Program-made: the position numbers and the translations under genes | Part shown: positions 1 to 62,164 of the stretch, in pieces | Layout: every line of letters begins with the position of its first letter | How positions within the stretch are numbered: position 1 is the first letter of the stretch | Notes under the pieces: generated by a model | What the model was told of the DNA's origin: nothing | The model's input: the letters and a program-made list of their open reading frames with translations, nothing else | Database searches by the model: none | Source of the DNA: Candidatus Binatia bacterium | Lineage (GTDB): Bacteria > Desulfobacterota > Binatia > UBA9968 | NCBI GenBank assembly: GCA_036506735.1 | Contig: DASXRG010000038.1 | Location: forward strand, 6,856 to 70,855 | Direction: 5' to 3' | Length of the DNA: 64,000 bases

Positions 1-705
1 TCGGGCAGCCAGACCTTGAAAGACGCGATGAACGAAGCGCTCAGGGATTGGGTGACCCACGTGCGCACGACCTACTATCTCATCGGCTCGGTCGCGGGGC
101 CGCATCCCTATCCGATGATGGTGCGCGATTTTCAATCGGTCATCGGCAAGGAAACGAAGCGGCAGATTCGCGCCGCCGAGGGGCGGCTGCCGGATTATCT
201 CGTCGCCTGCGTCGGCGGCGGCAGCAACTCGATGGGACTTTTCTATCCATTCGTCGGCGATTCCCGCGTTAAGATGGTGGGCGTGGAGGCGGCCGGCTCC
301 GGCTTGAAGAGCGGGCATCACGCCGCCAGCATTCTCGGCGGCGAAGTCGGCGTGCTCCACGGCAGCAAAAGCTACTTGCTGCAAGACCGGAACGGGCAGG
401 TGTGCCAAACCCATTCGATCGCCGCCGGCCTCGACTATCCCGGCGTAGGTCCGGAGCTGAGCTATCTCCGCGAGCGGGGGAGAATCCGTTTCGCGTCCGC
501 GACCGACCGCGAGGCGATTGCCGCGCTCAAAGAATTGGCCGAGGTGGAAGGGATCATCCCGGCGCTGGAGAGCGCGCACGCGATCGCCGGAGTGTTGCGC
601 CTGGCGCCGCGGCTCAAAAAAAACCAGATCGTCGTGGTCAACCTGTCGGGCCGGGGCGATAAGGACATGGGAACGGTGGGAGAATACCTGGGAGTAAAAG
701 TGTAG
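1..705 (+). CDS. trpB: Tryptophan synthase beta chain, C-terminal part (5'-truncated at window edge)
   Basis: Frame 1 is open from base 1. Translation ([27 protein letters not shown]) matches the conserved C-terminal half of PLP-dependent TrpB; trpA follows. Confidence 0.9.
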
Positions 706-780
706 TGAGGAGTGAGCCGTGAGGAGTGAGAAGTGAAAGGTCACGCGGTTTTAGTCGGCTCACTGCTCGCTTTCTCACTG
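705..780. repeat. Heptamer-periodic inverted repeat (GTGAGNN family) between trpB and trpA
   Basis: Left arm GTGAGGA GTGAGCC GTGAGGA GTGAGAA GTGAAAG (705-740); right arm CGGCTCAC TGCTCGC TTTCTCACTG (756-780) is its imperfect complement. Starts on the trpB stop codon. Confidence 0.8.
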
Positions 781-788
781 TTTTTAAG

Positions 789-1622
789 ATGAACCGCATC
801 GACCAAAAATTCGCCGAGCTCAAGAAGCGCCGCGAGGCGGCGTTGATACCGTTCGTGACCGCCGGCGATCCGAAGATCCAGACGACGCTAAAAATTCTGC
901 GCGCGCTGGAAGCGGCCGGCGCCGACGCGATCGAGGTCGGCGTCCCTTTCTCTGACCCGATGGCCGACGGCGCGACGATTCAGCGCGCCTCGGAACGCGC
1001 CCTCAGCGGCGGGACGTCGCTTGCGAACGTCCTCAAGCTCGTCCGCGCGTTTCGCCGCGGGTCGGAAACGCCGGTGATCCTCTTCGGCTATTACAATCCG
1101 TTTTTTCACTATGGCCTCCAAGAGTTCGTGCGCGACGCCGGCGCCGCGGGAGTGGACGGCATTCTGTGCGTCGATCTGCCGCCGGAAGAGAGCGGCGAGC
1201 TGAAGCTCCAGGCGGAGAAAAAAGGGCTGCACATCATTTTTCTGCTCGCGCCGACCAGCGACACGGCAAGAATCAAATTGGTCGCGCGCCGGGGCGGCGG
1301 ATTTATTTATTACGTCTCGGTCACCGGCGTGACCGGGGCGCGCCGCGCGCTGGAGAGCGAGCTGCAGGCACAGGTGGCGCGCATTCGAAAACACACCGCG
1401 CTCCCCATCGGCGTCGGCTTCGGCATCTCGACGCCGGTGCAGGCGGCGCGCATCGCCTCGTTCGCCGACGCCGCGGTCGTCGGCAGCGCCTTGATCGACG
1501 TCATGGAGCGCGCCGGGCGAAACGGCCAGAAAGTCAAAGACGCCGCCGCGTTCGTCGGGCGGCTGAAACGGGCGATGAAGCGCGCCTCACGCCTAACCCC
1601 TCACCCCTCACGTAAGGGGTAA
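789..1622 (+). CDS. trpA: Tryptophan synthase alpha chain
   Basis: MNRIDQKFAELKKRREAALIPFVTAGDP... and GADAIEVGVPFSDPMADG are typical TrpA. I prefer the ATG at 789 over the ORF-track start at 726, which lies inside the repeat hairpin. The last ~12 codons are encoded by the next hairpin. Confidence 0.9.
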   Translation: MNRIDQKFAELKKRREAALIPFVTAGDPKIQTTLKILRALEAAGADAIEVGVPFSDPMADGATIQRASERALSGGTSLANVLKLVRAFRRGSETPVILFGYYNPFFHYGLQEFVRDAGAAGVDGILCVDLPPEESGELKLQAEKKGLHIIFLLAPTSDTARIKLVARRGGGFIYYVSVTGVTGARRALESELQAQVARIRKHTALPIGVGFGISTPVQAARIASFADAAVVGSALIDVMERAGRNGQKVKDAAAFVGRLKRAMKRASRLTPHPSRKG

Positions 1623-1639
1623 AGGGTAAGGGGTTGAAG
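1585..1639. repeat. Heptamer-periodic inverted repeat (CCTCACG / TAAGGGG family)
   Basis: CCTCACGCCTAACCCCTCACCCCTCACG followed directly by TAAGGGGTAAAGGGTAAGGGGTTGAAG. Overlaps the trpA stop (1620-1622) and ends 3 nt before the folC ATG. Confidence 0.8.
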
Positions 1640-1641
1640 AG

Positions 1642-2967: not shown

Positions 2968-2994
2968 TGGGTTTGTCACGACGGAAAAAAATCC

Positions 2995-3022
2995 TTGCCT
3001 AGTCCTCGGCTCCTGTATATAA
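2995..3022 (+). promoter_or_regulatory. Possible sigma70-type promoter for lptD (TTGCCT, 16 nt, TGtATATAA extended -10)
   Basis: AT-rich TGTATATAA stands out in GC-rich DNA 38 nt upstream of the lptD ATG; TTGCCT lies at 2995-3000. Motif match only. Confidence 0.3.
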
Positions 3023-3059
3023 GTGGGCGGTTAGTTCTTCGCCTCCCGTTTAATCGCCC

Positions 3060-5510
3060 ATGCTTGTCCGACCGACATACGCCGTTCTGGTTTTGCTTCT
3101 AGCTTTCGGGCTGCTTCGCGCCGCGCCGCTGCCGGCTCAGCAGGCCGGGGCGGGCGCGGCCAAGCCTGAAGAGCAAATCAACGTCACCGCCGATTCTCTG
3201 CAGATGAGCGATAAAGGCACCGAGATACAAGGCCAGGGAAACGTCGAGGTCAAGCGGCAGGAGATGACCCTCAAGGCCGATCAAGTTTGGATGAATCGCG
3301 AGACCAACGACATGGAGGCCGCGGGCCATGTGACCATGGACGATCCCGAGTGGAAAATCAAATCGGCGGACCGGCTGCGGTTCAACCTGGGGGCGGAGGT
3401 CGGCACGATCGACAACGGCGACGTATTTCTTGAAAAGGGCCACTTGAGCCTCACCGGCAGACGTATCGAGAAGCTCTCCGGGCAGGCGTATCACATCGAT
3501 GACGGCTTTTTTACCACCTGTCTGTGCGAATCCGGCCCGCCGTCGTGGAAGATATCGGCCGAAGAGATGGACATCTCCCGCGAAGGAACGGGCAAGATCA
3601 GGCGGGCTACGTTTTATATCTTGGACGTGCCGGTATTGTACCTGCCTTACGCGCTCTTTCCGGTAAAATCGGAGCGACAGACCGGTTTTTTATTTCCCGA
3701 GTTCGGCGTTTCGAGCAAAAGCGGGTTTCGCTACATGCAGCCCTTTTACTGGGCGATCTCGAAGAGCAGCGACGCGACGATCACTTTCGATATCGAGACC
3801 CGTGCGCGCGTCGGATTTTTAGGCGAGTACCGGCAGATCTTCAGCCGCGACGCGAACTTCCAGATCGACTTTTCCTATTTGAACGAAGCGTTTCGCGATA
3901 ACCCGGACGCCAGCATCAAGGATCGCACGATCGCCGAGTGCAAACGGTCCAAGTTCGGCGGCGGCGTCGACTGCGACGTGATTCCGCTAAACCGCGGCAG
4001 CATCATCGCCAACCACCGTCAGACCGACTCCTCCGGTTGGACGACTTACAGCGACATCCGTCTGTTCAGCGACGATTTTTTCACCCGAGAACTGGCCCGC
4101 ACCTTGCATTTCACCTACGACCAGGAGCGGGACATCAAGACCAGCCGCTACAGTTTGTCGCGCGCGGGTTTCTTCCGGAGTTGGGGCGAGGCGAACCTCC
4201 GGGGCGAATGGGATTTCTACCAGGATTTTATTCAGGCGGACAAACGGACCCTGCAGCGGACGCCGCAGCTCGCCACCAACGGCCGCAGCGCTCTGTGGAA
4301 TACGCCGCTGGAGTTTCGCTGGCAGGCGGCGGGCGTGAATTATCTGCGGCAAGAGGGCGCCGACGGCCTGCGCTTGGATCTCCGCCCGGAGCTTGTGTTG
4401 CCGTTTCACATGGCGAACTATTTATACGGCTCTTTCAGCGTGGCGCCGCGCGAAACCGCCTATCATCTCTACGATACGAACGACTCCCCGTTGTTGGTGA
4501 CCTGCGCCCTGCCGTTCCCGGCCTTCTGCAACCGGGTGGAGCGTCACTTCGCGCGCAACAGCTCGCGCGAGTTGGTCGAGGTGAACGGCAACGTCGGGAC
4601 TTCCTTTGGGCGAGTTTATTCCTGGGACGGCGCCGACCTGCAAAAGATCAGGCACGTCGTCGAGCCCCAAGTCAGTTACCTGTTTATCTCGCGCAGCCGG
4701 CAGAGCGACATCCCGATCATGGATGGAATCGACCGGGTGAATCATCGCAATATGCTGACTTTCTCTCTGACCAATCGTTTCTGGGGAAAATTTTCCCAGA
4801 GCGGGGCGGCGCTCCCCGAGGATCCCGACGTCGAGCCGGTCGTGGCGCTGACGTCGGGCGATACCAGGGAATTGGGCCGATTAAAGTTCGAGATCAGCTA
4901 CGATATGGAGCACGAGAGAACGGTCGGCGACCGGCTTTCCGATCTGGATATCAGCCTGCGGGTGACGCCCAAGGATTATCTGGCCCTGGCGATCGGCACC
5001 GGAGTCAGTCCCAATTCAGGCCAGTTGAACCAGGCGCAAGCGCTTTTTTCCATCCTGGATCCTCGTCCGATCACCCGGCGCGTTCTCGACGTCGATTTCA
5101 TGCGGCCCAATTCTCTGGATCTGACTTACCGCTTTATCGGAAAAAACGCCGATGCCCCTCTGGCCGAAAACGCCAATCTTTTACTCGTAACCCATTCGCC
5201 GAAATTCTGCATCGGGGGCGACGTCAACTTCGATCCCCGCTGCAAGGTAGAAAAAGAAGTCATGGGATTATTCGGGGTGCGCAGCCTTTTGCACCTGACC
5301 GATCATCTGCTCTTTCTCTACGAGGCCAATTACAATACGAAGAAGGGTGGTTTCACCACGAACCGCGGCGCGGTCAAGCTGCTGTCGCAGTGCGAATGCT
5401 GGACGGTCACGGCTTCGGTCAACCGGACGACCAATCCGGATGAAACCAATTTCAAGTTTAGTTTCGAGCTGCTCGGCTTGAGCTCGCAAGCGAAGCAGAT
5501 TTTCAAATAA
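3060..5510 (+). CDS. lptD: LPS-assembly outer-membrane protein LptD (OstA family)
   Basis: Signal peptide, then an OstA-like N-terminal domain (INVTADSLQMSDKGTEIQGQGNVEVKRQEMTLKADQVWMNRETNDMEAAGHV) and a long beta-barrel-type C-terminal region; 816 aa. Confidence 0.8.
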   Translation: MLVRPTYAVLVLLLAFGLLRAAPLPAQQAGAGAAKPEEQINVTADSLQMSDKGTEIQGQGNVEVKRQEMTLKADQVWMNRETNDMEAAGHVTMDDPEWKIKSADRLRFNLGAEVGTIDNGDVFLEKGHLSLTGRRIEKLSGQAYHIDDGFFTTCLCESGPPSWKISAEEMDISREGTGKIRRATFYILDVPVLYLPYALFPVKSERQTGFLFPEFGVSSKSGFRYMQPFYWAISKSSDATITFDIETRARVGFLGEYRQIFSRDANFQIDFSYLNEAFRDNPDASIKDRTIAECKRSKFGGGVDCDVIPLNRGSIIANHRQTDSSGWTTYSDIRLFSDDFFTRELARTLHFTYDQERDIKTSRYSLSRAGFFRSWGEANLRGEWDFYQDFIQADKRTLQRTPQLATNGRSALWNTPLEFRWQAAGVNYLRQEGADGLRLDLRPELVLPFHMANYLYGSFSVAPRETAYHLYDTNDSPLLVTCALPFPAFCNRVERHFARNSSRELVEVNGNVGTSFGRVYSWDGADLQKIRHVVEPQVSYLFISRSRQSDIPIMDGIDRVNHRNMLTFSLTNRFWGKFSQSGAALPEDPDVEPVVALTSGDTRELGRLKFEISYDMEHERTVGDRLSDLDISLRVTPKDYLALAIGTGVSPNSGQLNQAQALFSILDPRPITRRVLDVDFMRPNSLDLTYRFIGKNADAPLAENANLLLVTHSPKFCIGGDVNFDPRCKVEKEVMGLFGVRSLLHLTDHLLFLYEANYNTKKGGFTTNRGAVKLLSQCECWTVTASVNRTTNPDETNFKFSFELLGLSSQAKQIFK

Positions 5511-5519
5511 GAAATCATC

Positions 5520-5882
5520 GTGCCGATCACCCATCCAACGCGAGTCGATAAACCGTGGGGCTACGAGCTGATCTGGGCGCACACCGACAAATACGTGGGT
5601 AAGATTCTTCACATCAACAAGGGCGAGTCGCTCAGTTACCAGTACCACAAGGTCAAGGACGAAACGATCTATCTGCTGAGCGGCGGCCTCGATCTCGAGA
5701 TCGGCGACGACCAAGGCCGCCGGACGTATCACGTGAAGCCGGGCGAGAGTTATCGCATCAGCGCCGGCACCAAGCATCGCATGACGGCCGTCGCCGATTG
5801 CGACGTGCTGGAGAGTTCCACGCCCGAGCTCGACGACGTGGTCCGGCTCGAAGACCGCTACGGCCGCGCAGGCCGGCCATAA
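5520..5882 (+). CDS. Cupin-domain protein (mannose-6-phosphate isomerase type II-like cupin)
   Basis: KPWGYELIW...GESLSYQYHKVKDETIYLLSG...PGESYRISAGTKHRM is the two-motif cupin signature. GTG start 10 nt after the lptD stop. Confidence 0.6.
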   Translation: MPITHPTRVDKPWGYELIWAHTDKYVGKILHINKGESLSYQYHKVKDETIYLLSGGLDLEIGDDQGRRTYHVKPGESYRISAGTKHRMTAVADCDVLESSTPELDDVVRLEDRYGRAGRP

Positions 5883-5996
5883 AGGTCCATCTCCTTCGTT
5901 GCGCTTCGAAACGTCTCGCTCGACGTACTGAAAAGAGTACGCCTGCGCTCGCCGATTTCTCGCGCGCCTTGTAGCTGGAGCCTTTCTGACCGGCCT
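5870..5996. repeat. ~120-nt structured repeat, copy 1 (core CTCGACGTACTGAAAAGAGTACGCCT)
   Basis: Outer arms GGCCGGCCATAAAGGTCC / GGAGCCTTTCTGACCGGCC and inner hairpin CGTAC-TGAAAAGA-GTACG. Shares CTTCGTTGC, CTCGACGTACTGAAAA, GTACGCCT and CTCGCGC blocks with 7779-7902. Confidence 0.65.
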
Positions 5997-6056
5997 GTCA
6001 AAGTTCCCATACTACTTTCGCGCTTTGAGCGCCCCTTTTCCCTGCCCCGAAGAATC

Positions 6057-6065
6057 TGTTATTAT
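6057..6065 (+). promoter_or_regulatory. Possible extended -10 element (TGtTATTAT) upstream of gspE
   Basis: TGTTATTAT lies 31 nt upstream of the gspE ATG. No convincing -35. Motif match only. Confidence 0.25.
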
Positions 6066-6095
6066 GCGACTACCGTAAGGTGCTTTAGGCAAGCC

Positions 6096-7778
6096 ATGGA
6101 AGGTTACGTCACTTTCGAACAGCGACTGGTCGAGCGCGGGATGATTTCGGCCGACGAGATGGACCGGATCGTCAAGCTGCAACAGGAGCAGCGCGCGCAT
6201 TTTATCCGGCTCGTCGTGGAGCTCGGCTTCGTCTCGGAAGACGATATCTTGCCGGTCCTGAGCGACCATTTTTCCATTCCGGTCGTCTCGCTCAAGGATT
6301 TTCCCGTGATCCCGCTTCCTTTGGAGCCGGTCTCGGACGGGGCCGACTTTTTTAAATCCTGCCGCATGGTGCCGCTCAAAGTGGAGGGCCGCGATCTCCT
6401 GGTCGCCACCACCGACCCGACCGATTTTTCCCGGCTTCACGCGCTGGAAGTGGCGACCGGCCTCAAGGTAAAGCCGGTGTTGGCCAAAGAGAAAGAAATC
6501 ACGGCGCGCATCGAAGCGGTGTTCGGCAACGGCGATTCGAGCGAGCCGTTGACGGGCGCCTCGGGCGCGCGCGAGATCGAAGGCGCCGCCGACCAAGAGG
6601 AGGTCGAGCACCTCCGCGACATGGCGTCGGAGGCGCCGGTCATCCGGTTGGTGAATGCTCTGCTCAGCCGGGCGCTCGAGAGCCGCGCCTCGGATATTCA
6701 CATCGAGCCGTTCGAGAACCAGCTCAAGGTGCGCTATCGAATCGATGGCATTCTGCACGAGATGGATCCGCCGCCGCGCCAGTTGAAGGCCGCGATCATC
6801 TCGCGCTTAAAAATTCTCGCCCAGCTGAACATCGCCGAGCGCCGCCTGCCGCAGGACGGCCGGATCAAGGTCAAGATCGCGGGAAAAGACGTCGACCTGC
6901 GCATCTCGACCATCCCTACGCTCTATGGCGAGAGCGTCGTGACCCGCCTGTTGGAGCGCTCGCAGATTTTTACCAGCCTCGACGAGTCGCTGGGATTTCC
7001 GCCGGACATCTACAAGCACTTCAGCGAGATGATCATCAAGCCGCACGGAATGCTTCTCGTCACCGGGCCCACCGGCAGCGGCAAGAGCACCACGCTCTAC
7101 TGCGCGCTCCAGAAGATCAACGATCCGTCCAAAAAGATCATCACGATCGAAGATCCGGTGGAGTATCAATTAAACGGCGTCAATCAGATCCACGTGAAGC
7201 CGCAGATCGGCCTCACCTTCGCCAACGGGCTGCGCTCGATCGTGCGCCAGGACCCGGACATCATCATGGTGGGAGAGATCCGCGACGCCGAGACCGCGGG
7301 CATCGCGATCCAGGCCGCGCTCACGGGCCATCTGGTGTTTTCCACGCTGCACACCAACGATGCCGCCGGCGCGGTCTCGCGCCTGTTGGAAATGGGCGTA
7401 GAAGATTATCTGCTCGCCTCCGCCCTTTTGGGCGTCCTGGCCCAGAGGCTCGTGCGGCGTCTCTGCATGGATTGCCGCGCGCAGGTGCCGTTTCAAAGCT
7501 CCAGGGTCGAAGAGTTCAGCGCCACGACCGTCTGGGAGCCGATCGGCTGCGAGGCCTGCTCCGGCACCGGTTATCTCGGCCGGGTCGGCATCTTCGAGCT
7601 GCTGCCGGCGACGCCGGAGATCTGCAAGCTGATCGTCCAGCGCTCGGATGCCAACCGGATTCGCGGCATGGCCATCTCCCAGGGCATGCGTTTGCTCAGG
7701 GAAGACGGCTGGCAGAAAGTCCGCGACGGCGTCACAACGCTGGCCGAAGTCTTACGCGTCACCCGCGAAGAAGCCTGA
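6096..7778 (+). CDS. gspE: Type II secretion ATPase GspE
   Basis: N-terminal T2SSE_N-type domain, Walker A GPTGSGKST, Walker B/Asp box, C-terminal tetracysteine CMDC...CEAC; 560 aa. Confidence 0.85.
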   Translation: MEGYVTFEQRLVERGMISADEMDRIVKLQQEQRAHFIRLVVELGFVSEDDILPVLSDHFSIPVVSLKDFPVIPLPLEPVSDGADFFKSCRMVPLKVEGRDLLVATTDPTDFSRLHALEVATGLKVKPVLAKEKEITARIEAVFGNGDSSEPLTGASGAREIEGAADQEEVEHLRDMASEAPVIRLVNALLSRALESRASDIHIEPFENQLKVRYRIDGILHEMDPPPRQLKAAIISRLKILAQLNIAERRLPQDGRIKVKIAGKDVDLRISTIPTLYGESVVTRLLERSQIFTSLDESLGFPPDIYKHFSEMIIKPHGMLLVTGPTGSGKSTTLYCALQKINDPSKKIITIEDPVEYQLNGVNQIHVKPQIGLTFANGLRSIVRQDPDIIMVGEIRDAETAGIAIQAALTGHLVFSTLHTNDAAGAVSRLLEMGVEDYLLASALLGVLAQRLVRRLCMDCRAQVPFQSSRVEEFSATTVWEPIGCEACSGTGYLGRVGIFELLPATPEICKLIVQRSDANRIRGMAISQGMRLLREDGWQKVRDGVTTLAEVLRVTREEA

Positions 7779-7902
7779 GCCACGCCCGATAAGCTGCGCC
7801 TAACTTCGTTGCTCACCTCTCGCCTTCCCTCGACGTACTGAAAACGTACGCCTCGGTTGGCTCAAGGCTCGCGCCTCGTTATGCTTGTTTCTCGGACGTG
7901 GC
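7779..7902. repeat. ~120-nt structured repeat, copy 2 (core CTCGACGTACTGAAAACGTACGCCT)
   Basis: Same orientation and block order as 5870-5996. Outer arms GCCACGCCCGATAAGC / GTTTCTCGGACGTGGC. Starts directly after the gspE stop. Confidence 0.65.
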
Positions 7903-7980
7903 TCCGCTTTGTATGAGAATTTTTTTATCAGCCTGCGGGAAATTTTTTCACAAACTGCTTAATACCGATCGATAAACTTC

Positions 7981-8004
7981 ACCTAACTTCGTTGGCTCAC
8001 GAAT
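7981..8004. repeat. Partial third copy of the 5' block of the structured repeat
   Basis: ACCTAACTTCGTTGGCTCAC closely matches GCCTAACTTCGTTGCTCAC at 7798-7816. Confidence 0.5.
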
Positions 8005-13046: not shown

Positions 13047-13498
13047 TTGCGCGCCTCGCAAAATCCAGGCAGGGCTTTTCCCTCATTGAACTCATGATGG
13101 TCCTTGTGCTTGTCGGGTTGGCGAGTCTGATAACCATTCCGGCCATTGATCGTGGAATCAAAAAGCGCCAGGCCAGGCAGTCGATCCTGGCAATCGCGGC
13201 AGTGGCGCGCGACATGCGCCGGCGGGCCATTGACGAAGGGAAGCTCAAGGAACTTATCATCAGCCCCCGCGAGGACAGCTACTTCGCCTCGGGCACCGAC
13301 ATCTTCCACTTGCCCCAGACGGTCAAAGTCACCGGGATCGCGGGCGGCGAGCCGCTCGGCAATCAGATCACGCGATTTACCTTTTTCCCCAACGGAAGCA
13401 TCGTCGGCGGCGCCATCGAGCTTTCGGATCGCCAACAATATACGTACTTGATACGTCTCGAACCGCTCGTGGGACGCGTCGTGGTGACCCGACAATGA
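13043..13498 (+). CDS. gspH: Minor pseudopilin, GspH-like
   Basis: SRQGFSLIELMMVLVLVGL prepilin motif after a 10-aa leader; 151 aa; GTGA overlap with the gspG stop. Confidence 0.65.
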   Translation: MIARLAKSRQGFSLIELMMVLVLVGLASLITIPAIDRGIKKRQARQSILAIAAVARDMRRRAIDEGKLKELIISPREDSYFASGTDIFHLPQTVKVTGIAGGEPLGNQITRFTFFPNGSIVGGAIELSDRQQYTYLIRLEPLVGRVVVTRQ

Positions 13499-13989
13499 AA
13501 AACGAAAAGCGGAAAACGGAAAGCGGAAATAGGAAATCCGAAAATCCAAAACCTGTCCCTTCGATAAACTCAGGGCAAGCTCTGAGCCAAGCCGAAGGAT
13601 CTAAAATCGAAAGTGGTTTTACCCTTTTGGAAGTCGTCGTCGCCATGGCGATCGTCGGCTTGGGAGTGGTGACTTTGCTCGAAGTTTTTTCGTACGGCCT
13701 CAGGCTGGAAGCCTCCGGCGCGGCCCGGACCGATGCCGTCGTCTACAGCCGCCAGGTGATGGACGAGTTTCTGACCCGCAAGGATTTTGACGGTCGGGGA
13801 GATGCAGGCTCGTTCGGAAAGAACCACCGCTGGCGGGTGGATACCAGTCCCCTGCGCGACGACAGCGACCTCGCGCCGAAGGGCTGGGACGTAACCGAGA
13901 TCACGCTGCGCATGCGCTACCCCGACGGAGAGCGCGACAAACTGGTGGAGATGAAAACTCTCCGGGTGCAAAAAACGAAACGACAATGA
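13495..13989 (+). CDS. gspI: Minor pseudopilin, GspI-like, with 41-aa leader
   Basis: ESGFTLLEVVVAMAIVGLGVV prepilin motif. The only in-frame start is the ATG at 13495 (ATGA overlap with gspH), giving an unusually long leader. Confidence 0.65.
   Translation: MKNEKRKTESGNRKSENPKPVPSINSGQALSQAEGSKIESGFTLLEVVVAMAIVGLGVVTLLEVFSYGLRLEASGAARTDAVVYSRQVMDEFLTRKDFDGRGDAGSFGKNHRWRVDTSPLRDDSDLAPKGWDVTEITLRMRYPDGERDKLVEMKTLRVQKTKRQ
13498..13552. repeat. Tandem degenerate heptamer tract (GGAAARC type) inside the gspI leader codons
   Basis: GAAAAGC GGAAAAC GGAAAGC GGAAATA GGAAATC CGAAAAT CCAAAAC. The same repeat type recurs at 22562-22593. Confidence 0.7.
13540..13605 (+). repeat. 66-nt block duplicated in gspI and gspJ leaders, copy 1
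   Basis: 61/66 identity to 14028-14093. Encodes ENPKPVPSINSGQALSQAEGSK. Contains the hairpin CCTTCG..CTCAG-GGCAAGCT-CTGAG..CGAAGG. Confidence 0.85.
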
Positions 13990-14705: not shown

Positions 14706-15736
14706 AATCACACTCGGCACTCAGCACTCGGTCCTCAGCACTATCCAATGAGCGCGGCGTGGCGCTGATCGTCGTGCTGTGGATTTTTATCTTTCTCTTC
14801 GTCGTGGCCTTCGATTTTTCCGCGGCGGTGCGCGAGGAGGGAATGGCGGCGCACCGTTATGCCGAAGAAGCGGAGGGCTACTACCTGGCGCTCGCGGGCT
14901 TTCAGCAGGGGATTTATGAGTTGATGAAGCTATCGGCAAAGACGGGACAGGTCGCCGCGCCGCAGGGCAGCGACGTGTTCGAAGGAAATTGGATCAAAGG
15001 GAATCTGGGCGGAGGAATCTACGAGGTCCGGTTCGTCGATGAGTCGGGGAAGATCAACATCAACCGCATCACCGACGACACCCTGCGCCTGGTCTTGGCT
15101 CATCTGGGCGTGGAGGAAAAAAGGCGCAACATTATCGCCGATTCCGTCATGGATTGGCGCGACGAAGACGACCTGCATCGCTTGAACGGCGCGGAGAGCG
15201 ATTATTATCTGACGCTCTCGCCTCCCTATACGGCGCGGAACGGGCCGTTCGATTCCGTCGAGGATTTGCTATGGGTGCGCGGGGTGACGCCGGAGATTTT
15301 CTACGGCCGTGAGGGCGGCGTCGGGCTGCAAGAAGTTTTTACCGTTGACAGCCAGTCGGCGGTCAATCTGCGCACCGCGCCGCCCGCGGTCTGTGTCGCG
15401 CTGCTCGGCGTCTCGTTGGAAAAATGCCAAGCCTTCATCGACCAGAGGGCCAAGCTGTCGGAGAAGACCCTGGGCGATCTGTTGCGGCTTTTAGGGATTG
15501 CCGACGATGATTTGATCCGGCGGCAGGTGACGTTCGCCAATCCGACCGTGATCACGATCGAAGCCAAGGGGTATCAAGCGAACTCGACTACCGAGCGGCA
15601 GGTCAAAGGAGTGGTCCGCATGCTCGGCGGCGACCGGGGTTACGACCTGCTTCGCTGGATCGATCGCGACTCGCCCAAGGGCATCAGGTCAACCGGCTTC
15701 CAATACGAGGAAGGTGATAGCCAACCCGCGTCATGA
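14702..15736 (+). CDS. gspK: Minor pseudopilin GspK
   Basis: ERGVALIVVLWIFIFLFVVAF N-terminal helix and the GspK core (GKININRITDDTLRLVL, helix-hairpin-helix-like region). GTG at 14702 gives a GTGA overlap with gspJ; the ORF-track start at 14588 lies inside gspJ. Confidence 0.7.
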   Translation: MKSHSALSTRSSALSNERGVALIVVLWIFIFLFVVAFDFSAAVREEGMAAHRYAEEAEGYYLALAGFQQGIYELMKLSAKTGQVAAPQGSDVFEGNWIKGNLGGGIYEVRFVDESGKININRITDDTLRLVLAHLGVEEKRRNIIADSVMDWRDEDDLHRLNGAESDYYLTLSPPYTARNGPFDSVEDLLWVRGVTPEIFYGREGGVGLQEVFTVDSQSAVNLRTAPPAVCVALLGVSLEKCQAFIDQRAKLSEKTLGDLLRLLGIADDDLIRRQVTFANPTVITIEAKGYQANSTTERQVKGVVRMLGGDRGYDLLRWIDRDSPKGIRSTGFQYEEGDSQPAS

Positions 15737-21475: not shown

Positions 21476-22597
21476 ATGTCCCGATCCGAGTTGCTCCATT
21501 TGCTCGAGAGGTTGCTCTCGCTTCCCACCGCGCCGTTTCACGAGCGGTTTGTCAGCTCGTTTCTGCGCGCCGAGCTTAAAGAAGCCGCTCTCGATTTCAC
21601 TTTGGATGAATACGGCAACATCATCGCCGGCTGGGGCGACGAGCCGGCGCTCGCCTGCGTCGCGCACATGGACCATCCGGGGTTTGAGATTACCGACGCT
21701 TCGGGTGGTAGTGCGGAAGCTTCATGGTTCGGCGGCGTGGACGCCAAATATTTTTCCGGCGCGCGGGTGGTGATCTACGATCAAAACTCCGGCGCGGCGC
21801 GCGGCCGCGGCGTCGTCCGGAAAATCACCAGGAACCTCCAGAACAGAGTCGTGAAGATGGCGCTGCGGGTGAAAGGCGGCGCCTTCCCCGGAGACTTCGG
21901 TACTTGGGATCTCACCCCGTTTCGCCGGCAAAAAGAATGGATTCGCACCAAAGGCGCCGACGACCTGGTCGGCTGCGCCGCGATTCTTTCGCTGCTCAAA
22001 CGGGTCAAAGAGCGCGCGAATCGGACCGGAGTGCGCGCGGTGTTCACGCGCGCCGAAGAGCAGGGTTTCATCGGCACCCTGGGGATGATTCGCGCCGGTC
22101 ATTTGCCGCTCACGACCAAAATCATCTCCGTGGAAACCAGCAAGGCGCTGCCGGGCGTGGTCTTGGGCGGCGGCCCGGTGATCCGCCTCGGCGACCGCGC
22201 CAGCATGTTCGATCAGCGCATGGTGTTTTTCATGGACCACGTGGCGCGCGAGCTTAAAAAAAAGGACCGCCGGTTTCGTTACCAGCGACGGGTGATGGAC
22301 GGCGGCACCTGCGAGGCGACGCCCTATCAGCTGAACGGCTATGTCGCCGGCGGCATCGCGATTCCGCTCCATAACTACCACAATCAGGGCAGGACGAAGA
22401 TCGGCGCGGAGGCGGTCCATATCCGCGACGTCGAAGGGGCGATCGAGTTTCTCGTGGAGCTGGCGCTGCGGATGGAACATTTCGCCGCCGCCGCCGAAGC
22501 GGTGCGCGGCAGGATCGAAAGCGGTTGGGACAAGTATGGGATGCGGCTCAAAAACAAAGGTGAAAACGGAAAGCGGAAAGATGAAAACAGGGGATAG
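21476..22597 (+). CDS. M42/M28-like metallopeptidase (aminopeptidase/endoglucanase-like family)
   Basis: Motif series AHMDHPGF, KGADDLVGCAA, RAEEQGFIG, MDGGTCEA, PLHNYHN parallels the metal ligands of M42 peptidases. The C-terminal KNKGENGKRKDENRG is encoded by a GGAAARC heptamer tract (22562-22593). Confidence 0.55.
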   Translation: MSRSELLHLLERLLSLPTAPFHERFVSSFLRAELKEAALDFTLDEYGNIIAGWGDEPALACVAHMDHPGFEITDASGGSAEASWFGGVDAKYFSGARVVIYDQNSGAARGRGVVRKITRNLQNRVVKMALRVKGGAFPGDFGTWDLTPFRRQKEWIRTKGADDLVGCAAILSLLKRVKERANRTGVRAVFTRAEEQGFIGTLGMIRAGHLPLTTKIISVETSKALPGVVLGGGPVIRLGDRASMFDQRMVFFMDHVARELKKKDRRFRYQRRVMDGGTCEATPYQLNGYVAGGIAIPLHNYHNQGRTKIGAEAVHIRDVEGAIEFLVELALRMEHFAAAAEAVRGRIESGWDKYGMRLKNKGENGKRKDENRG

Positions 22598-24796: not shown

Positions 24797-24838
24797 CCTC
24801 ACCCTAGCCCTCTCCCGTGGGAGAGGGAAGGGAGAGGG
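24797..24838. repeat. Inverted repeat (CCCTCTCCC-GTG-GGGAGAGGG core)
   Basis: CCTCACCCTAGCCCTCTCCC GTG GGAGAGGGAAGGGAGAGGG directly after the VWA stop codon. Confidence 0.75.
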
Positions 24839-24864: not shown

Positions 24865-25239
24865 ATGGCTGGAGCAGGCATGTGTCATGACGTTGAGGAG
24901 AGCAAAGGTCCAAAAAAGGAAACGATCTACCATCAGGTGAAAGAGTTTCTCGACAAGGGCGAGACGCTCGCGGTCGCGACGATCGTCTCGACCAAAGGCT
25001 CGACGCCCAGAGAAGTCGGCGCGAAAATGGTCGTGACCGCCTGGGGCGAAATCCTTGGCACGATCGGCGGCGGCTGCGGCGAGGCGGACGTCAAGCGCGA
25101 GGCGATCGAGGTGATTCGCACGCGCAAGCCGAGAACCGTCCGCATCGATCTGCTGGACGACATCTCTTCGGACAGCCCGGCGGTTTGCGGCGGGATCATG
25201 AACGTGTTTATCGAGCCGTGGTGGCAGGAAAATAAGTGA
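24865..25239 (+). CDS. XdhC/CoxI-family protein, N-terminal-domain-only
   Basis: LAVATIVSTKGSTPREVGAKMVV...GTIGGGCGEADV is the XdhC_CoxI signature; AAGGAGG Shine-Dalgarno upstream. Confidence 0.7.
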   Translation: MAGAGMCHDVEESKGPKKETIYHQVKEFLDKGETLAVATIVSTKGSTPREVGAKMVVTAWGEILGTIGGGCGEADVKREAIEVIRTRKPRTVRIDLLDDISSDSPAVCGGIMNVFIEPWWQENK

Positions 25240-25324
25240 GTTAGTGAGCAGTGAGCAGTGAGACGTGAGGAGTCCTGAGCGAAAAGTTTTTTCTGCTCAC
25301 TGCTCACTTCTCACGCCTCACTGT
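25236..25324. repeat. Heptamer-periodic inverted repeat (GTGAGNN family)
   Basis: GTGAGTTA GTGAGCA GTGAGCA GTGAGAC GTGAGGA ... CTGCTCAC TGCTCAC TTCTCAC GCCTCACTG. Overlaps the stop codon at 25237-25239. Confidence 0.85.
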
Positions 25325-26126: not shown

Positions 26127-26201
26127 GCGTTCAAGTGGTTCAAATCGTTCAATTCGTTCAAAATAAAAGATCGGATTGAACGGCTTGAACAACTTTTGAA
26201 C
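26127..26201. repeat. Heptamer-periodic inverted repeat (GTTCAAN family)
   Basis: GCGTTCAAG TGGTTCAAA TCGTTCAAT TCGTTCAAA ... GGATTGAAC GGCTTGAAC AACTTTTGAAC. Confidence 0.85.
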
Positions 26202-28348: not shown

Positions 28349-28361
28349 TGCTGAGGGCTGA

Positions 28362-28389
28362 GTAGGGGCGGTTCGCGAACCGCCCCTAC
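28362..28389. terminator. Perfect 28-nt palindrome after fni
   Basis: GTAGGGGCGGTTCG|CGAACCGCCCCTAC, preceded by GTGCTGAGGGCTGAG heptamers; 14 nt after the fni stop. No U-tract. Confidence 0.55.
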
Positions 28390-30719: not shown

Positions 30720-31402
30720 ACAGTCTCATTTCCATTCGCAACATCGAGAAGGTCTATCACATGGGGGACATCGAGGTGCCCGCGCTGCGCGGCGTCAACT
30801 TGGATATCCACGCCGGTGAGTTCGTCGCGATCATGGGCGCTTCCGGCTCGGGCAAGTCCACTTTCATGAATATCTTGGGCTGTCTCGACCGGCCGACCCG
30901 CGGGAATTATTTTCTCGAAGGCCAGGAAGTCGGCTCGCTTTCCTCGGACGAGTGGGCGAGCATCCGCAATCGCAAGATCGGCTTCGTATTTCAGGGATTC
31001 AATCTGCTTTCCCGGACCTCGGCGCTGGAAAACGTCGAGCTGCCGATGATGTACAACGGGCTGCACGGCAAGGACAGGCGCCAGCATGCGCTCGAGTCAC
31101 TCGCGCTGGTCAGCTTGGGAGACCGGCTGCACCATATGCCGAACCAGCTCTCCGGCGGGCAGCAGCAAAGGGTCGCGGTCGCGCGCGCGTTGGTGAACCA
31201 TCCGTCGCTGATTTTAGCCGACGAGCCGACCGGAAATCTCGATTCGAAAACCAGCGCCGAGATCATGGAGCTGTTCCAAGCGCTGAACCGCCGGGAGGGT
31301 CTGACGATCGTCCTGGTCACGCACGAAGCCGACGTTGCGGCGTACGCCGAGAGACAGATTCATTTTCGCGACGGCCTGATCACTTCGGATGAGAGGAAGT
31401 GA
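30707..31402 (+). CDS. ABC transporter ATP-binding protein (MacB/LolD family)
   Basis: Walker A GASGSGKST, signature LSGGQQQRVA, Walker B LILADEPT. The conserved ISIRNIEKVY start region requires a start before the first ATG, so I propose the TTG at 30707; the ORF-track start at 30380 lies inside the adaptor gene. Confidence 0.75.
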   Translation: MVQVDSLISIRNIEKVYHMGDIEVPALRGVNLDIHAGEFVAIMGASGSGKSTFMNILGCLDRPTRGNYFLEGQEVGSLSSDEWASIRNRKIGFVFQGFNLLSRTSALENVELPMMYNGLHGKDRRQHALESLALVSLGDRLHHMPNQLSGGQQQRVAVARALVNHPSLILADEPTGNLDSKTSAEIMELFQALNRREGLTIVLVTHEADVAAYAERQIHFRDGLITSDERK

Positions 31403-31479
31403 GGAGTGAGAAGTGAGCCGTGAGCAGATAAAGAAGGGGAATGGGTGGACTGCTCACTACTCACTGCTCACGGCTCACT
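31398..31479. repeat. Heptamer-periodic inverted repeat (GTGAGNN family)
   Basis: AGTGAGG AGTGAGA AGTGAGC CGTGAGCAG ... CTGCTCAC TACTCAC TGCTCAC GGCTCACT. Overlaps the ATPase stop codon. Confidence 0.85.
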
Positions 31480-38331: not shown

Positions 38332-38387
38332 GCGTAAAGGGTTAAGGGTAAGGGGATCGCCTGACGCCTCACGCCTTACCTTTCACG
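38332..38387. repeat. Heptamer-periodic inverted repeat (TAAGGGG family)
   Basis: GCGTAAAGGGTTAAGGGTAAGGGG-ATCGCCTGA-CGCCTCACGCCTTACCTTTCACG. Confidence 0.85.
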
Positions 38388-46787: not shown

Positions 46788-46852
46788 CGTTAGGGGTAAG
46801 GCGTAAAGCGTGAGGCGATTTGCTCCTAACCCCTTACGCCTAACGATTCACG
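46788..46852. repeat. Heptamer-periodic inverted repeat (TAAGGGG family)
   Basis: CGTTAGGGGTAAGGCGTAAAGCGTGAGGCG ... CTCCTAACCCCTTACGCCTAACGATTCACG. Confidence 0.85.
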
Positions 46853-48519: not shown

Positions 48520-48593
48520 CGTTAGGCGTGAGGGGTGAGGCGTGAAATGAGAATTTTTCCGATCGCCTATCGCCTCACCCCTTACCCCTCACG
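48520..48593. repeat. Heptamer-periodic inverted repeat (GTGAGGG/TAAGGGG family)
   Basis: CGTTAGGCGTGAGGGGTGAGGCGTGAAATGAG ... CGCCTATCGCCTCACCCCTTACCCCTCACG. Confidence 0.85.
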
Positions 48594-58379: not shown

Positions 58380-58380
58380 T

Positions 58381-58932: not shown

Positions 58933-59074
58933 GACGCGCCTCCTCGCCGGCCCGGTCGCGCGGGCCGTGCGCGATCATCGAACGCGTGAGGCTTAATACA
59001 ACGGTGCCGCGTTTGCAAGTCGAGGTTGTATTCCAAGGAGCGGCTATTTTATAAACAATCAGGAGGAAAGGGCT

Positions 59075-59485: not shown

Positions 59486-59663
59486 TCACCGGAAGTGGAT
59501 TACGCTCCGGCTGATTCCGTCAAGCCTCAAAACACGTAAAAATTTCCCTCCCCGCCTACTTTTTTACGGGCGCGATCCCCGCTGATCGCCGATAAGTTCT
59601 TTAATTTACCTGACTATTTGTTGGCATGGCCGTTGCTCTGGCTTCTCCTTGGCTGGAGGCAAT

Positions 59664-60065
59664 ATGGAAACGCTACGGAGCAACCCCGCTTGGAAAATGG
59701 CCATCATCATGCTGATCGCCTTGACCTGCCTTTTTATCTTTCTGGTCGCCTTGGCCTCCTCCCAGGCCGGTGATAGCGCTCAGGCTGCCCGCGACAAAGC
59801 CATGTTGACAGCTTTGGCCGCCGCCCAGGCTATCCCTTCCGAAAGCGAGGACGGGCACAAATTCCTGAATGATTTTGTGCTGGTTCCGGGGAGCGCCGTT
59901 CTGGTCGACGATCACCACGTTCTGGCGTTGTACAAAAATGAGGGAAAGGATTTTTATGCGGTGCTTTTGTTCAGCGTCGATTGCGATCGAACGGGCTGCA
60001 CTCCCAACCAGCTTCTCGCCTTCTCGATAGTCGATAGCGACGGTCAGGATATCCAGGTCGCATAA
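59664..60065 (+). CDS. Hypothetical membrane-anchored protein
   Basis: N-terminal TM (WKMAIIMLIALTCLFIFLVALA); GGAGG upstream of the ATG at 59664. No family recognised. Confidence 0.4.
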   Translation: METLRSNPAWKMAIIMLIALTCLFIFLVALASSQAGDSAQAARDKAMLTALAAAQAIPSESEDGHKFLNDFVLVPGSAVLVDDHHVLALYKNEGKDFYAVLLFSVDCDRTGCTPNQLLAFSIVDSDGQDIQVA

Positions 60066-60163
60066 CATCGAAGTGAACAAGTCGAGGAGCACGTCGTCAT
60101 ACATATATATGAGGTCGGTTAGGTCAGAGTAGGACATCCGGCATCGGCAAAAGGAGGTGGAAG

Positions 60164-60514
60164 ATGGAAGCAGGTAAGGCAAGGACATCCCTCGGAGCGA
60201 CGGTCAAGATTTCGCATCAACATTGGCTGCGCGGGCTTGAGCAGGGAATGGTGATCGGTTACCGGCCGCGCGCGCAAAAAAATTGGCTGGTCAAATTCGA
60301 CGAAAGGTATCCCGGCGGCGGAATCGACGGGGATAAGCTGTACTTCAACGAAAGCGAATTCATAGAAATCCGTGACCCGGACGCGTCTCTCGAAACGCCC
60401 ACGTTGGCCTCAAATGAATTTCTCATCTCTGCGCCCGGGCTGGGTGAAAAACCGGCCGTGGCGTCAAACGAGTTTGTCATCTCCGCGGCCAACGGCCACG
60501 ACATCCGACAATAA
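60164..60514 (+). CDS. Hypothetical protein (116 aa) with internal ASNEF[LV]ISA duplication
   Basis: Strong Shine-Dalgarno (AAAGGAGGTGGAAG-ATG). The nine-residue motif is repeated at 60407-60433 and 60461-60487. Confidence 0.45.
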   Translation: MEAGKARTSLGATVKISHQHWLRGLEQGMVIGYRPRAQKNWLVKFDERYPGGGIDGDKLYFNESEFIEIRDPDASLETPTLASNEFLISAPGLGEKPAVASNEFVISAANGHDIRQ

Positions 60515-60662
60515 GCCAAATTTCTTTTTCCGCTCGCAACCTGCCACCCAGCGCCGTCTCCCGTGAGACGGCGCTCCTCTCTCAGCCGCTGTCGCCCTCT
60601 CGAACTTGAAGAAATCGGTTGTTCTAGGGTAGCGTACCCGAACAATCTTCTGAGGAGGGTGT

Positions 60663-62087
60663 ATGCCATTCGCAGAGCTTCGCCGGCTGGGATTTCTTAT
60701 TGTGTTGTTCGCCGCGCCGGCCTGGGCACAGACGCGCCCGGTGGTGATCCAGGGCGGGACTCTCATCGACGGCAGCGGACGGCAGCCGCTCTACGACGCG
60801 GCGATCGTCTTCCAAGAGGGCCGCATCCGCGACGTCGGCGAGAGAGGGAAGGTCTCAGTGCCGCAAGGCGCAGAGGTCATCGACGCCAAGGGCAAGACGA
60901 TTTTGCCGGGGCTGATCGACGGCCATTGCCACCTGCGCGACTGGATGGGCGAGCTTTATCTCCACTTCGGCATCACGACGTGCCCGACGATCTCCAACAA
61001 TCCGACCGAATGGGTGATCGCCCAGAGAGAGGGCGTGCGCAACGGCACAATCCGCGGGCCGCGCGTCTGGGCCTCGGGCAACGTCATCGACGGACCGCCG
61101 CCCGAGGGATTGAGCGGGCTCCGGCGCCAGCGCATGAGCGTCTTCGTCGAGACCGAGGACGAGGCGCGCAAAGCGGTTCGCGGGGGGGTGGAAAAAGGCG
61201 TGGACGGCTTCAAGCTGTTCGAGCGGCTGCAGCCGAAAATCGCCAAAGCCGCGACGGAGGAAGCGCACCGCCTGGGCAAGCCGGTCCTCGCGCATACGCT
61301 CGATATTTTTGCCGCGGCCGACGCCGGTTACCAATCCGTCGAGCACTCGTGGTCCGTGCTCTTCACCTCGATTCAGGATCCCAAGAAAAAATCCGATCTC
61401 GACATCGCGCGCATCATGGGAAAAATCAGCACCGCGGAAGCCCACGTTCACATGGAGCCGGCGCAGTTCGACAAGATCATCCAGGCGATGGTGGCGAAAA
61501 ACGTCCACTGGAGCCCGACGTGGGGCACGACGTTTCGCCCGCTCTCGCCGCGCACGGCACAAATGCGCGAGCGTGAGCTGGCGCTGCTAAAAAATCCGGA
61601 TCTCCGTTATCTCCCTGCTTATCTTCCCAAGGATAGCCAGCGACTCTACTCGCTTTACGAGGACGCGTCGCTGGAAAAACGGGCGCAGCTTCTCGCCGGC
61701 TATAAGATGGTCCAGGATTTCGCCCGGCGCTTCGTCGCCGCGGGCGGCAAAATTCATCTCGGCTCCGATCCGGGCTACATCCTGGCGGGCTACGCGCTCC
61801 ACGTTGAGCTTCAGCTCGCGGTCGAAGCCGGCCTCACCCCGCTCCAGGCGATTCGGGGCGCGAGCCTGAACGTCGCCGAGGCATGGGGCAAACAGAAAGA
61901 CTACGGCAGCGTCGAGAACGGCAAGGTCGCCGACCTCGTGATCGTCGACGGCGATCCGCTGAAAGACATCGCGGCGACCCAGCGGGTGGAGAAATTTTTC
62001 ATGGACGGCAGGCCGGTCGACCTCTCGTTCCACCCGGACTACAAGAATCCGATTCCACGGCCGATTCCGGATCGGCCGGGGGAATAA
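60663..62087 (+). CDS. Secreted amidohydrolase-family metallohydrolase
   Basis: Signal peptide; GLIDGHCHL metal motif, VLAHT, HLGSD and C-terminal VADLVIVDGDPL typical of the amidohydrolase superfamily. Confidence 0.8.
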   Translation: MPFAELRRLGFLIVLFAAPAWAQTRPVVIQGGTLIDGSGRQPLYDAAIVFQEGRIRDVGERGKVSVPQGAEVIDAKGKTILPGLIDGHCHLRDWMGELYLHFGITTCPTISNNPTEWVIAQREGVRNGTIRGPRVWASGNVIDGPPPEGLSGLRRQRMSVFVETEDEARKAVRGGVEKGVDGFKLFERLQPKIAKAATEEAHRLGKPVLAHTLDIFAAADAGYQSVEHSWSVLFTSIQDPKKKSDLDIARIMGKISTAEAHVHMEPAQFDKIIQAMVAKNVHWSPTWGTTFRPLSPRTAQMRERELALLKNPDLRYLPAYLPKDSQRLYSLYEDASLEKRAQLLAGYKMVQDFARRFVAAGGKIHLGSDPGYILAGYALHVELQLAVEAGLTPLQAIRGASLNVAEAWGKQKDYGSVENGKVADLVIVDGDPLKDIAATQRVEKFFMDGRPVDLSFHPDYKNPIPRPIPDRPGE

Positions 62088-62090
62088 GAA

Positions 62091-62164
62091 AGGCGGAGGG
62101 ATGAAGGCTGAAAAAAATACAAAAGAGAGTTTCTTTTTCATCCCTCATCCCTCATCCTTCATCC
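62091..62164. repeat. Heptamer-periodic inverted repeat (GGATGAG / CATCCCT family)
   Basis: AGGCGGAGGGATGAAGGCTGAA ... TTCATCCCT CATCCCT CATCCTT CATCC. Confidence 0.75.

Follow-up and report, generated by a model that had tools for sequence, protein, structure and literature searches.

Heptamer-armed hairpins at gene junctions of a Candidatus Binatia genome and their resemblance to PF05635 gene cassettes

A 64,000-nucleotide stretch of a Candidatus Binatia genome (assembly GCA_036506735.1, contig DASXRG010000038.1, positions 6,856 to 70,855; hereafter, the window) carries eleven intergenic hairpins, most of them with arms built from short tandem arrays of degenerate heptamers facing the complementary array, together with three one-armed tracts. 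What are these elements, and why do they sit where genes meet? Tandem heptanucleotide repeats have been noted in bacteria since 1990, and we know of no accepted origin or function for them. Here we report that arms of the same kind, with the same polarity and the same stop-to-start position, occur with and without an enclosed gene of the PF05635 family, and that arm units follow protein subfamilies. These sequence comparisons make it reasonably probable that the window hairpins are gene-less copies of PF05635 cassettes, replaced family by family at a few hot junctions.

Spread over 403 contigs, the draft assembly totals 5.18 Mb at 60% G+C (here G000, the window being C38:6856-70855; G, C and L numbers denote genomes, contigs and cassette loci), and a crude gene model of 4832 genes leaves 11% of it intergenic. 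Tandem arrays were detected with Tandem Repeats Finder (TRF), using dinucleotide shuffles of the same intergenic DNA as background.

PF05635 cassettes and gene-less hairpins

To our knowledge, the large PF05635 family has no assigned function and is familiar only from ribosomal RNA (rRNA) intervening sequences, hence its label '23S rRNA intervening-sequence protein', and as a relative of Avd, an accessory protein of diversity-generating retroelements. Among 55 PF05635 loci of relatives, analyzed through their 150-nt flanks with small genes of G000 as controls, the flanks are inverted (score of at least 12) at 37 loci, against 4 of 400 control genes, and a periodic array stands on at least one side at 51, against 47 of 400. 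The units of these cassettes belong to families that occur gene-less in the present genome: GTGAGNN (G015), GTGAGGC (G005, G006), GTTCAA (five genera) and TTGAATTT (G006), the latter type forming the arms of the G006 cassette that is the counterpart of the TGAAT family, as well as AAAAAGT, GGATTTT, GCTGAAA, GAGGATN, GTTTCNG and CTCGTG.

The agreement extends to individual elements. Both arms match a sampled cassette in the correct polarity in 44 of 109 heptamer hairpins (5 in the reversed control) and in 14 of 33 nonamer hairpins (0 in the control). Four of the matching loci lie in the window: the hairpins at 25234..25324 (score 17.5; reversed control 8.5) and 31393..31479 (14.0; control 9.0) match the arms of the G015 cassette L048, the one at 26127..26201 those of the G010 cassette L046 (14.5; control 8.0) and the one at 48520..48593 those of the G005 cassette L073 (13.5; control 6.5). 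PF05635 proteins that are at least 60% identical across genomes have arm units in common, and those below 60% have none (Mantel p = 0.001). The layout recurs as well. In the G015 cassette the TGA of the upstream gene falls in the first GTGAG unit, the open reading frame (ORF) starts within the array and the next gene begins about 25 nt after the CTCAC arm; the wedge from stop to start that characterizes the hairpins of this genome is found again in the G015 and G006 cassettes.

PF05635 copies number 0-13 per genome in family f1, 2-3 in f2 and 0 in all 15 f3 genomes. Period-7 arrays reach 10.5 per 100 kb in G000 and G006, 5.5 in one f2 genome and 1.5-2.0 in two f3 genomes, the comparison of f1 and f2 with f3 being based on 200-kb samples.

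The present genome holds no intact PF05635 gene, only two remnants, and none within the window hairpins; lacking a PF05635 ORF, these can count only as gene-less derivatives and not as complete cassettes. The first remnant (C400), an N-terminal fragment of 55 aa with 86% identity to a G006 protein (Pfam E = 5e-12), starts just after the stop of the upstream gene between the arms CACGAGG CTTGAGG CGCGAGT and CTCGCGC CTCGAGC CTCGCGC (CNNGAGG / CTCGNGC). The second, a decayed stretch on the minus strand (C398:2031-2180), is 64% identical to the G016 'MKSVEELDVFKLAH...' subfamily, which goes with CTCGTG arms, and has no recognizable arms around it. In relatives, many PF05635 genes lie within a few hundred bases of contig ends or contain internal stops or truncations, which suggests that the cassettes break short-read assemblies and decay quickly.

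The association extends to other phyla. A profile built from a four-protein PF05635 alignment, and hence covering one subfamily only, retrieved at least 597 relatives of that subfamily in a scan of one genome per species. We examined 77 loci from Bacteroidota, Acidobacteriota, Planctomycetota, Clostridia, Chloroflexota, the candidate phyla radiation (CPR), Proteobacteria, Cyanobacteria and one archaeal metagenome-assembled genome. Flanks are inverted at 54 of the 77, against 17 of 380 cross-locus controls, and at 69 a periodic array stands on one side or both; period 7 accounts for 102 of the 109 flanking arrays, whose copy number has its peak at 4-5 but extends up to 26. Among solved structures, the closest to the present proteins is 2GSC (E = 3e-22), the S23p protein of Xanthomonas campestris, described as a pentameric four-helix-bundle toroid (PMC4990558), and PF05635 resembles the Avd protein of diversity-generating retroelements (PMC10053308). 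We found no paper tying PF05635 genes in general to heptamer arrays or gene-less hairpins, in a search of full texts that covers few subscription journals.

These results bear on a suggestion of the initial annotation of the window, that a protein might read a 7-bp register. Arms that enclose the PF05635 gene, units shared by related proteins and the peak at 4-5 units lend it indirect support, whereas the register itself is not always 7. On the reading that we favor, gene-less copies would have been made by internal deletion or by spread of PF05635 cassettes in the manner of miniature inverted-repeat transposable elements (MITE), and would be selfish or commensal residents of a limited number of permissive junctions, not designed by the host, with families replacing one another over time. 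CTTCGTG nonamer hairpins of 60-66 nt are 90-97% identical across many loci, with near-identical copies in G005; copies without a gene therefore disperse in their own right. As regards a MITE, the elements have inverted arms and scattered copies of near identity, no target-site duplication was resolved given the divergence of the relatives, and the associated PF05635 gene is no known transposase. More speculatively, the PF05635 protein may recognize its own repeat unit, with the pentamer matched to 4-5 units, and be needed for spread or maintenance.

Several observations weigh against this interpretation. The present genome is among the richest in hairpins yet lacks an intact PF05635 gene, and G007 has hairpins with no PF05635 match, although a draft in 403 contigs could lose repeated genes where contigs end. 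For about 60% of the hairpins, the 55 sampled cassettes offer no match. The correlation between protein and arms is also expected if arms and gene were merely inherited or moved together, so that it does not prove recognition, and the association of f1 and f2 versus f3, drawn from 200-kb samples, is confounded by phylogeny. The five-unit limit is not strict, with cassette arrays of up to 26 units. Finally, neither a target-site duplication nor a precise pair of empty and filled sites is resolvable among relatives that are only about 80-85% identical in protein sequence.

Elements of the window and their build across the genome

The window contains the following elements, with hairpins listed without strand and z values referring to RNA folds scored against 200 dinucleotide shuffles each:

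704..780: GTGAGNN hairpin in the trpB/trpA gap, -35.3 kcal/mol, z -3.6; 5' arm AGTGAGG AGTGAGC CGTGAGG AGTGAGA AGTGAAA, 3' arm of CTCAC type
1585..1639: CCTCACN / GTAAGGG hairpin of reversed polarity (pyrimidine arm 5'), the weakest fold, z -2.0
13497..13552, plus strand: one-armed array of about 6.6 units, GAAAGCG grading into GAAATCC (TRF, 13497-13544)
14706..14748, plus strand: one-armed array CACTCGG CACTCAG and so on, 4.6 units (TRF, 14711-14742)
22562..22593, plus strand: weak one-armed GAAAGCG-type tract of 2.7 units at the 3' end of a plus-strand gene (TRF, 22562-80)
24797..24838: hairpin with CCCTCN hexamer arms (CCTCACCCTAGCCCTCTCCC / GGGAGAGGGAAGGGAGAGGG), TRF period 6/11, z -3.9
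25234..25324: GTGAGNN hairpin directly 3' of a TAA stop (25237-25239), z -6.2
26127..26201: nonamer hairpin, four copies of GTTCAANNN / three of NNNTTGAAC, z -6.7
28349..28389: two GCTGAGN units, then a perfect 28-nt palindrome (28362-28389) resembling a repetitive extragenic palindromic (REP) sequence, z -4.0
31393..31479: GTGAGNN hairpin with the TGA of the upstream gene (31400-31402) within a GTGAG unit, z -6.5
38332..38387: GTAAGGG/GTGAGGC-type hairpin between two minus-strand genes, z -3.9
46788..46852: hairpin GTTAGGG GTAAGGC GTAAAGC GTGAGGC / complement, z -3.1
48520..48593: GTGAGGC/GTGAGGG hairpin between two minus-strand genes, z -5.9
62091..62164: GGATGAG/GGGATGA / CATCCCT hairpin 3' of a TAA stop at 62085-62087, z -4.1

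All eleven hairpins of the initial annotation were recovered in place, with RNA folds of -23 to -45 kcal/mol and z between -2.0 and -6.7; for ten of them none of the 200 shuffles folds as well, and for 1585-1639 nine do. Its three one-armed tracts are genuine tandem arrays, that at 22562 weakly so. TRF assigns period 7 to eight window hairpins and to all three one-armed tracts, in many cases together with a super-period of 14 nt (hairpin spans 704-736, 1585-1634, 25234-25323, 31393-31479, 38358-38376, 48520-48592 and 62138-62164). A constant 7-nt period, as first proposed, does not hold: the arms at 26127-26201 are 9-mers, those at 24797-24838 are hexamers belonging to a period-6/12 family and not to the heptamer family, and the palindrome at 28362-28389 is non-periodic; periods of 6, 8 and 9 also occur genome-wide. 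Pairing in several registers, another early proposal, is plausible, the minimum-energy structure making up only 7-41% of the ensemble in ten of the eleven hairpins.

The AAAATCC units of the 13497..13552 array are the complement of GGATTTT, the unit found around PF05635 genes in G010, G005 and G029. A block of about 40 nt, GAAAATCCAAAACCTGTCCCTTCRATAAACTCAGGGCAGG, occurs twice within 500 nt in this region (13530-13570 and 14025-14065), at two successive gene junctions, each copy linking an AAAATCC array to a different small palindrome. At the first of these junctions G006 has instead two non-complementary arrays side by side, four units of GTTCCGG followed by four of AAATCCA.

Across the genome TRF finds 544 period-7 arrays, 350 of them in the intergenic 11%. 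Intergenic arrays of period 7 number 292, against 8.0 in shuffles; the figures are 39 against 4 for period 6, 47 against 13 for period 8 and 90 against 12 for period 9, and periods 10-11 exceed shuffles about twofold. An inverted partner, defined as a second array at most 130 nt away, accompanies 164 of 352 period-7 arrays (47%) and none when flanks are shuffled, the share being 60% for period 9, 28% for period 6 and 0% for period 10. Counted by gap, there are about 110 heptamer, 33 nonamer and 15 hexamer hairpins and about 170 one-armed heptamer arrays. Some 165 canonical units are represented, dominated by GAATTTT, AAAAAGT, AGGGATG, GAGCAGT, AACATTC and GAGGCGT. The initial view of one architectural family with several sequence sub-families holds.

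An arm is a tandem array of mostly 4-5 units, each with a conserved core and 2-3 variable bases; 187 arrays have 4-5 copies, against 19 with 5-6. Only in the heterogeneous GTGAG set do the two arms of one hairpin complement each other at the variable positions better than arms of different hairpins do (0.76 against 0.54); the TGAAT, GTAAGG and GTTCAA families show no such excess. The conserved feature is the core at a fixed spacing, not exact pairing. We accordingly rejected the notion that the arms are recent inverted duplicates or co-evolve for pairing, as three of four families show no within-hairpin excess, and the same observation renders doubtful the 'slippage plus inversion' initially envisaged as generating mechanism.

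A broader version of that idea treats the elements as plain long simple-sequence repeats, made in place by polymerase slippage and inverted by occasional template switching, with no dedicated protein. The sharp drop above 5 units is difficult to reconcile with it, since the copy number is peaked and lacks a geometric tail. Slippage has been proposed as the cause of a heptamer excess in many bacteria (cited in PMC4679880 and PMC4692102), the 14-nt super-period suggests duplication of two-unit blocks, and unit number differs between orthologous arrays, as it does between Coxiella strains; but polarity is fixed in every family, discrete unit families with conserved cores and variable spacers are common to several genera, f3 has no array excess, and the association with PF05635 is tight here and in other phyla. 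We regard slippage by itself as an improbable account. An in-place origin from the ATGA stop/start overlap was considered but not adopted: the TGAATTT units at trpB|trpA look like the start of trpA, ATGAAT, and some copies have short direct repeats (TTATGA, GATGAAT) beside them, but the unit family occurs at dozens of unrelated junctions and around a PF05635 gene, and the resemblance is not used here as evidence.

The palindrome at 28362-28389 (GTAGGGGCGGTTCGCGAACCGCCCCTAC; C38:35217-35244) has a GTAG head and is unchanged in at least 10 contigs. It is the window copy of a classical-looking REP, GTAGGGGCGGTTCG/CGAACCGCCCCTAC, with at least 10 identical copies; the octamer GTAGGGGC occurs 99 times. 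The genome also encodes a protein with a Y1_Tnp domain (PF01797; C227:52032-52361, 59 bits), as would befit a system of REP or REPIN (REP doublets forming hairpins) type mobilized by a REP-associated tyrosine transposase (RAYT). As an explanation of the window hairpins at large this is highly improbable: the periodic hairpins lack a GTAG head and fall into many unrelated unit families, one transposase cannot explain more than ten of these, and neither a REP, including repeats of GTAGGGGCGGTTCGCGAACCGCCCCTAC type, nor a heptamer array was seen in the flanks of the Y1 gene. The RAYT reading may hold for the 28362-28389 palindrome only. As the initial annotation had it, the elements are not classical REP, bacterial interspersed mosaic elements (BIME) or enterobacterial repetitive intergenic consensus (ERIC) sequences. 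Nor are they CRISPR arrays, as their units abut head to tail and spacers are absent. Rfam returned no match for the window at the gathering threshold, and PF13366 (GxxExxY nuclease) is absent from this genome.

Two further repeats were noted. One is a palindrome of some 110-180 nt, dispersed and centered on GTACT(N4-8)AGTAC (...CTTCGTTGC...CGACGTACTGAAAAGAGTACGCCT...CGCGCCTTGT...), which lies at window positions 5890-6010 and 7800-7920, at C133:247-429 and elsewhere, and is present at equivalent junctions in G008, G005, G006 and G009; it has no Rfam match at E <= 1, nor does window 5850-8050 as a whole. The other, roughly 140 nt long and bounded by terminal inverted repeats (GCCCGCCYGGGNNTCTCTCTCCGGGCCGATGCGATA ... 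CGTCCCACGCATCGGCCCT..GAGA...CCCRGGCGGGC) and found for instance at C351:939-1077, C148:11223-11360 and C7:22365-22503, has dozens of copies in both orientations, none of them seen in the window, and could be a MITE or a structured RNA.

Stop codons, polarity and hot junctions

The location of the elements at gene boundaries, noted at the outset, is confirmed genome-wide and includes operons such as trpB|trpA. Period-7 hairpins occupy 109 gaps, of which 85 are co-directional, 19 convergent and 5 divergent, against 2812, 464 and 512 among all gaps, so that promoter-side gaps are avoided. Between co-directional genes the median start of the element is -2 nt from the upstream stop (interquartile range -10 to +4) and its median end 12 nt before the next start, with 78 nt filled in a median gap of 95 nt; it reaches from the stop codon upstream nearly to the ribosome-binding site that follows. 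The stop codon is inside or abuts the array at 67 of 123 gene ends facing a hairpin. In the window, where all copies lie between protein-coding ORFs and none in a 23S rRNA helix, the trpB stop TAG (703-705) is inside the first unit of the 704..780 hairpin.

Polarity is equally regular. The purine-rich arm, which bears the stop codons, lies 5' on both strands: of 109 hairpins, 87 have the arm rich in TAA, TAG and TGA on the 5' side and 15 on the 3' side, and the core-bearing arm comes first in 24:0 hairpins of the GTGAG family, 14:0 of TGAAT, 6:0 of GTAAGG and 12:1 of GTTCAA. Stops in all three frames occur in the 5' arm of about 50% of hairpins, against 3% of random intergenic 35-mers. Because the hairpin reads alike on both strands, ribosomes coming from either direction encounter the stop-rich arm first. 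If rRNA intervening sequences are a guide, the hairpins may be transcribed within operon mRNA and fold out of the way; they would stop incoming ribosomes in all three frames, and they are probably substrates of RNase III.

At the 1585..1639 hairpin the trpA ORF runs through the first arm and has its TAA stop in the second, and the element is also present in G010. The last 12 codons or so of trpA coincide with the first arm (1585-1622), a layout likewise found in G010, and trpA ends otherwise in other relatives; here the hairpin element has remodelled the trpA C-terminus. The elements thus occupy a sizeable share of operon junctions and supply the stops of many genes and sometimes, as in trpA, their last residues. 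They probably break metagenome assemblies, and are hence relevant to gene callers and annotators.

Two early proposals are not supported. A-opposite-C mismatches had hinted at G-U wobbles in the transcript of one strand, but folds of both strands of the 85 co-directional hairpins show no asymmetry, the sense strand being the stabler one in 40 and the less stable one in 45 (p = 0.16). As for a terminator role, at least five T in the 9 nt 3' of the stem are found on 15 of 85 sense strands, against 23 of 85 antisense strands; there is no sense-strand U-tract after the stem, and an intrinsic (Rho-independent) terminator was rejected as an identity for these elements.

Comparison with relatives shows the unit families to be restricted by lineage. 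Four-unit GTGAGNN arrays number 20 in this genome, 0-3 in its congeners, up to 10 in other genera of the family and 0 in the two other families of the order (reversed control 0), and four-unit TGAATNT arrays number 16 here, 42 in G006, 33 in G013 and none beyond three genera. Nine relatives show good synteny, and occupancy by elements is clustered at few junctions, most being never occupied: trpB|trpA has an element in 7 of the 10 genomes scored, g10|g11 and g12|g13 each in 5 of 7, and the variance of occupancy per junction is above permutation (p = 0.0005). The occupants of trpB|trpA differ by species, with GTGAGNN, GAATNTT, TGCAAAA and CTCGTNN units, and the junction is free of elements in G004 and G003. 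Some arrays are inherited, such as the trpA-end CCTCACN/GTAAGGG hairpin common to G010 and the CACTCRG array at 14706, retained at the equivalent junction in G008 and G005, and unit number differs between orthologous arrays. The junction before an 816-aa gene (3060-5510) carries at window positions 2990-3040 a strongly conserved promoter-like motif, CTTGCCTA-N14-18-CTCCTGTATATAAG, common to nearly all relatives there; a repeat element is never found at that junction.

The reoccupation of few junctions across species by different families (7 of 10 genomes at trpB|trpA; p = 0.0005) is also what host selection would produce if the junction needed a structure, be it a 3'-end protector, an RNase III site or a partial terminator setting cistron ratios, for which any stable hairpin serves, leaving the sequence family free to vary. 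Hairpins directly 3' of stop codons and their depletion in divergent gaps agree with this, and REP elements at similar positions are reported to affect 3' untranslated region function in E. coli. Selection for RNA structure is harder to square with the missing sense-strand U-tract, with equal sense and antisense stability, with arms whose variable positions do not co-vary for pairing in three of four families, with the empty trpB|trpA of the close relatives G004 and G003, and with a density in the sister family f3 of only 1.5-2.0 period-7 arrays per 100 kb. We deem it unlikely as the primary explanation; it is compatible with co-option of selfish elements, and thus not strictly exclusive of an origin of the hairpins from PF05635 cassettes.

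Relation to known repeat systems

Seeing the hairpins together with the PF05635 cassettes opens protein-repeat binding, RNase III processing and mobilization to experiment, and the link suggests a partner for the long-unexplained heptamer repeats of bacteria. A close parallel to the cassettes is Coxiella burnetii's intervening sequence (IVS), in which RNase III cuts a stem of 28 bp and an S23p (PF05635) ORF is preceded by 2-3 GACAGAT heptamers; heptamer number varies, the ORF is decaying and the element is regarded as selfish (PMC4990558). Its terminal inverted repeats around a PF05635 ORF, with heptamers upstream, are like the cassettes of the relatives studied here. The difference lies in location and content: the IVS sits in 23S rRNA helix 45 and is excised by RNase III, whereas the present elements stand between protein-coding genes and the window copies lack an ORF.

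Other systems share the array or the palindrome. The short tandemly repeated repetitive (STRR) sequences of heterocystous cyanobacteria and the TAACTGA repeats of Beggiatoaceae are abundant intergenic heptamers located by start and stop codons, with stops in all frames in one orientation and a patchy distribution (PMC4679880); unlike the present elements, they are mostly direct arrays of one or few units, with one inverted case among 170 in BOGUAY and neither hairpin architecture nor an associated gene described. REP/BIME and REPIN-RAYT systems resemble them as extragenic palindromes 3' of genes with lineage-specific expansions, and in the proposed dependence of a non-autonomous hairpin on a single-copy protein gene flanked by the same repeats (PMC3333891, PMC3116915). 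REP sequences are, however, non-periodic palindromes of 20-40 nt with a GTAG head and a Y1 transposase, in contrast to the periodic arrays described here and their four-helix-bundle protein without known nuclease activity.

A close match to the gene-less hairpins is found in Xanthomonas, where convergent plus/minus pairs of GGGAATC arrays make up 70 of the 186 sites in Xcc and 75 of the 183 in Xac (Rehm et al. 2015, PMC4692102). As in the present genome, these are intergenic heptamers of mostly about four units with inverted pairs capable of forming stem-loops; they are transcribed, and their length varies between related species with the single or inverted type kept (PMC4692102). The Xanthomonas repeats have essentially one G-rich unit, read as a G-quadruplex former, whereas more than ten unrelated families, including AT-rich ones and periods of 6, 8 and 9, occur here, and PMC4692102 does not mention stop-codon polarity or a link to PF05635. 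That an already described repeat family might account for the elements is thus partly true, inasmuch as inverted pairs of heptamer arrays have been published.

It is conceivable, and we propose it tentatively, that a single widespread class of elements, so far undescribed, comprises both the heptamer-armed hairpins and the PF05635 cassettes. In it a pentameric, Avd-like four-helix-bundle protein would recognize, as DNA or RNA, 4-5 tandem repeats in the arms of its own unit of 6-9 nt, and be required for spread, replacement or survival at junctions. Gene-less hairpins would then be non-autonomous satellites, and STRR, Xanthomonas GGGAATC, TAACTGA and ORF-bearing rRNA IVS might all be faces of that class. 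Inverted heptamer arrays are already known as a kind of repeat; what is new in the present elements is their many unit families, their periods of 6-9 nt, their stop-first polarity and an apparently unpublished tie to PF05635.

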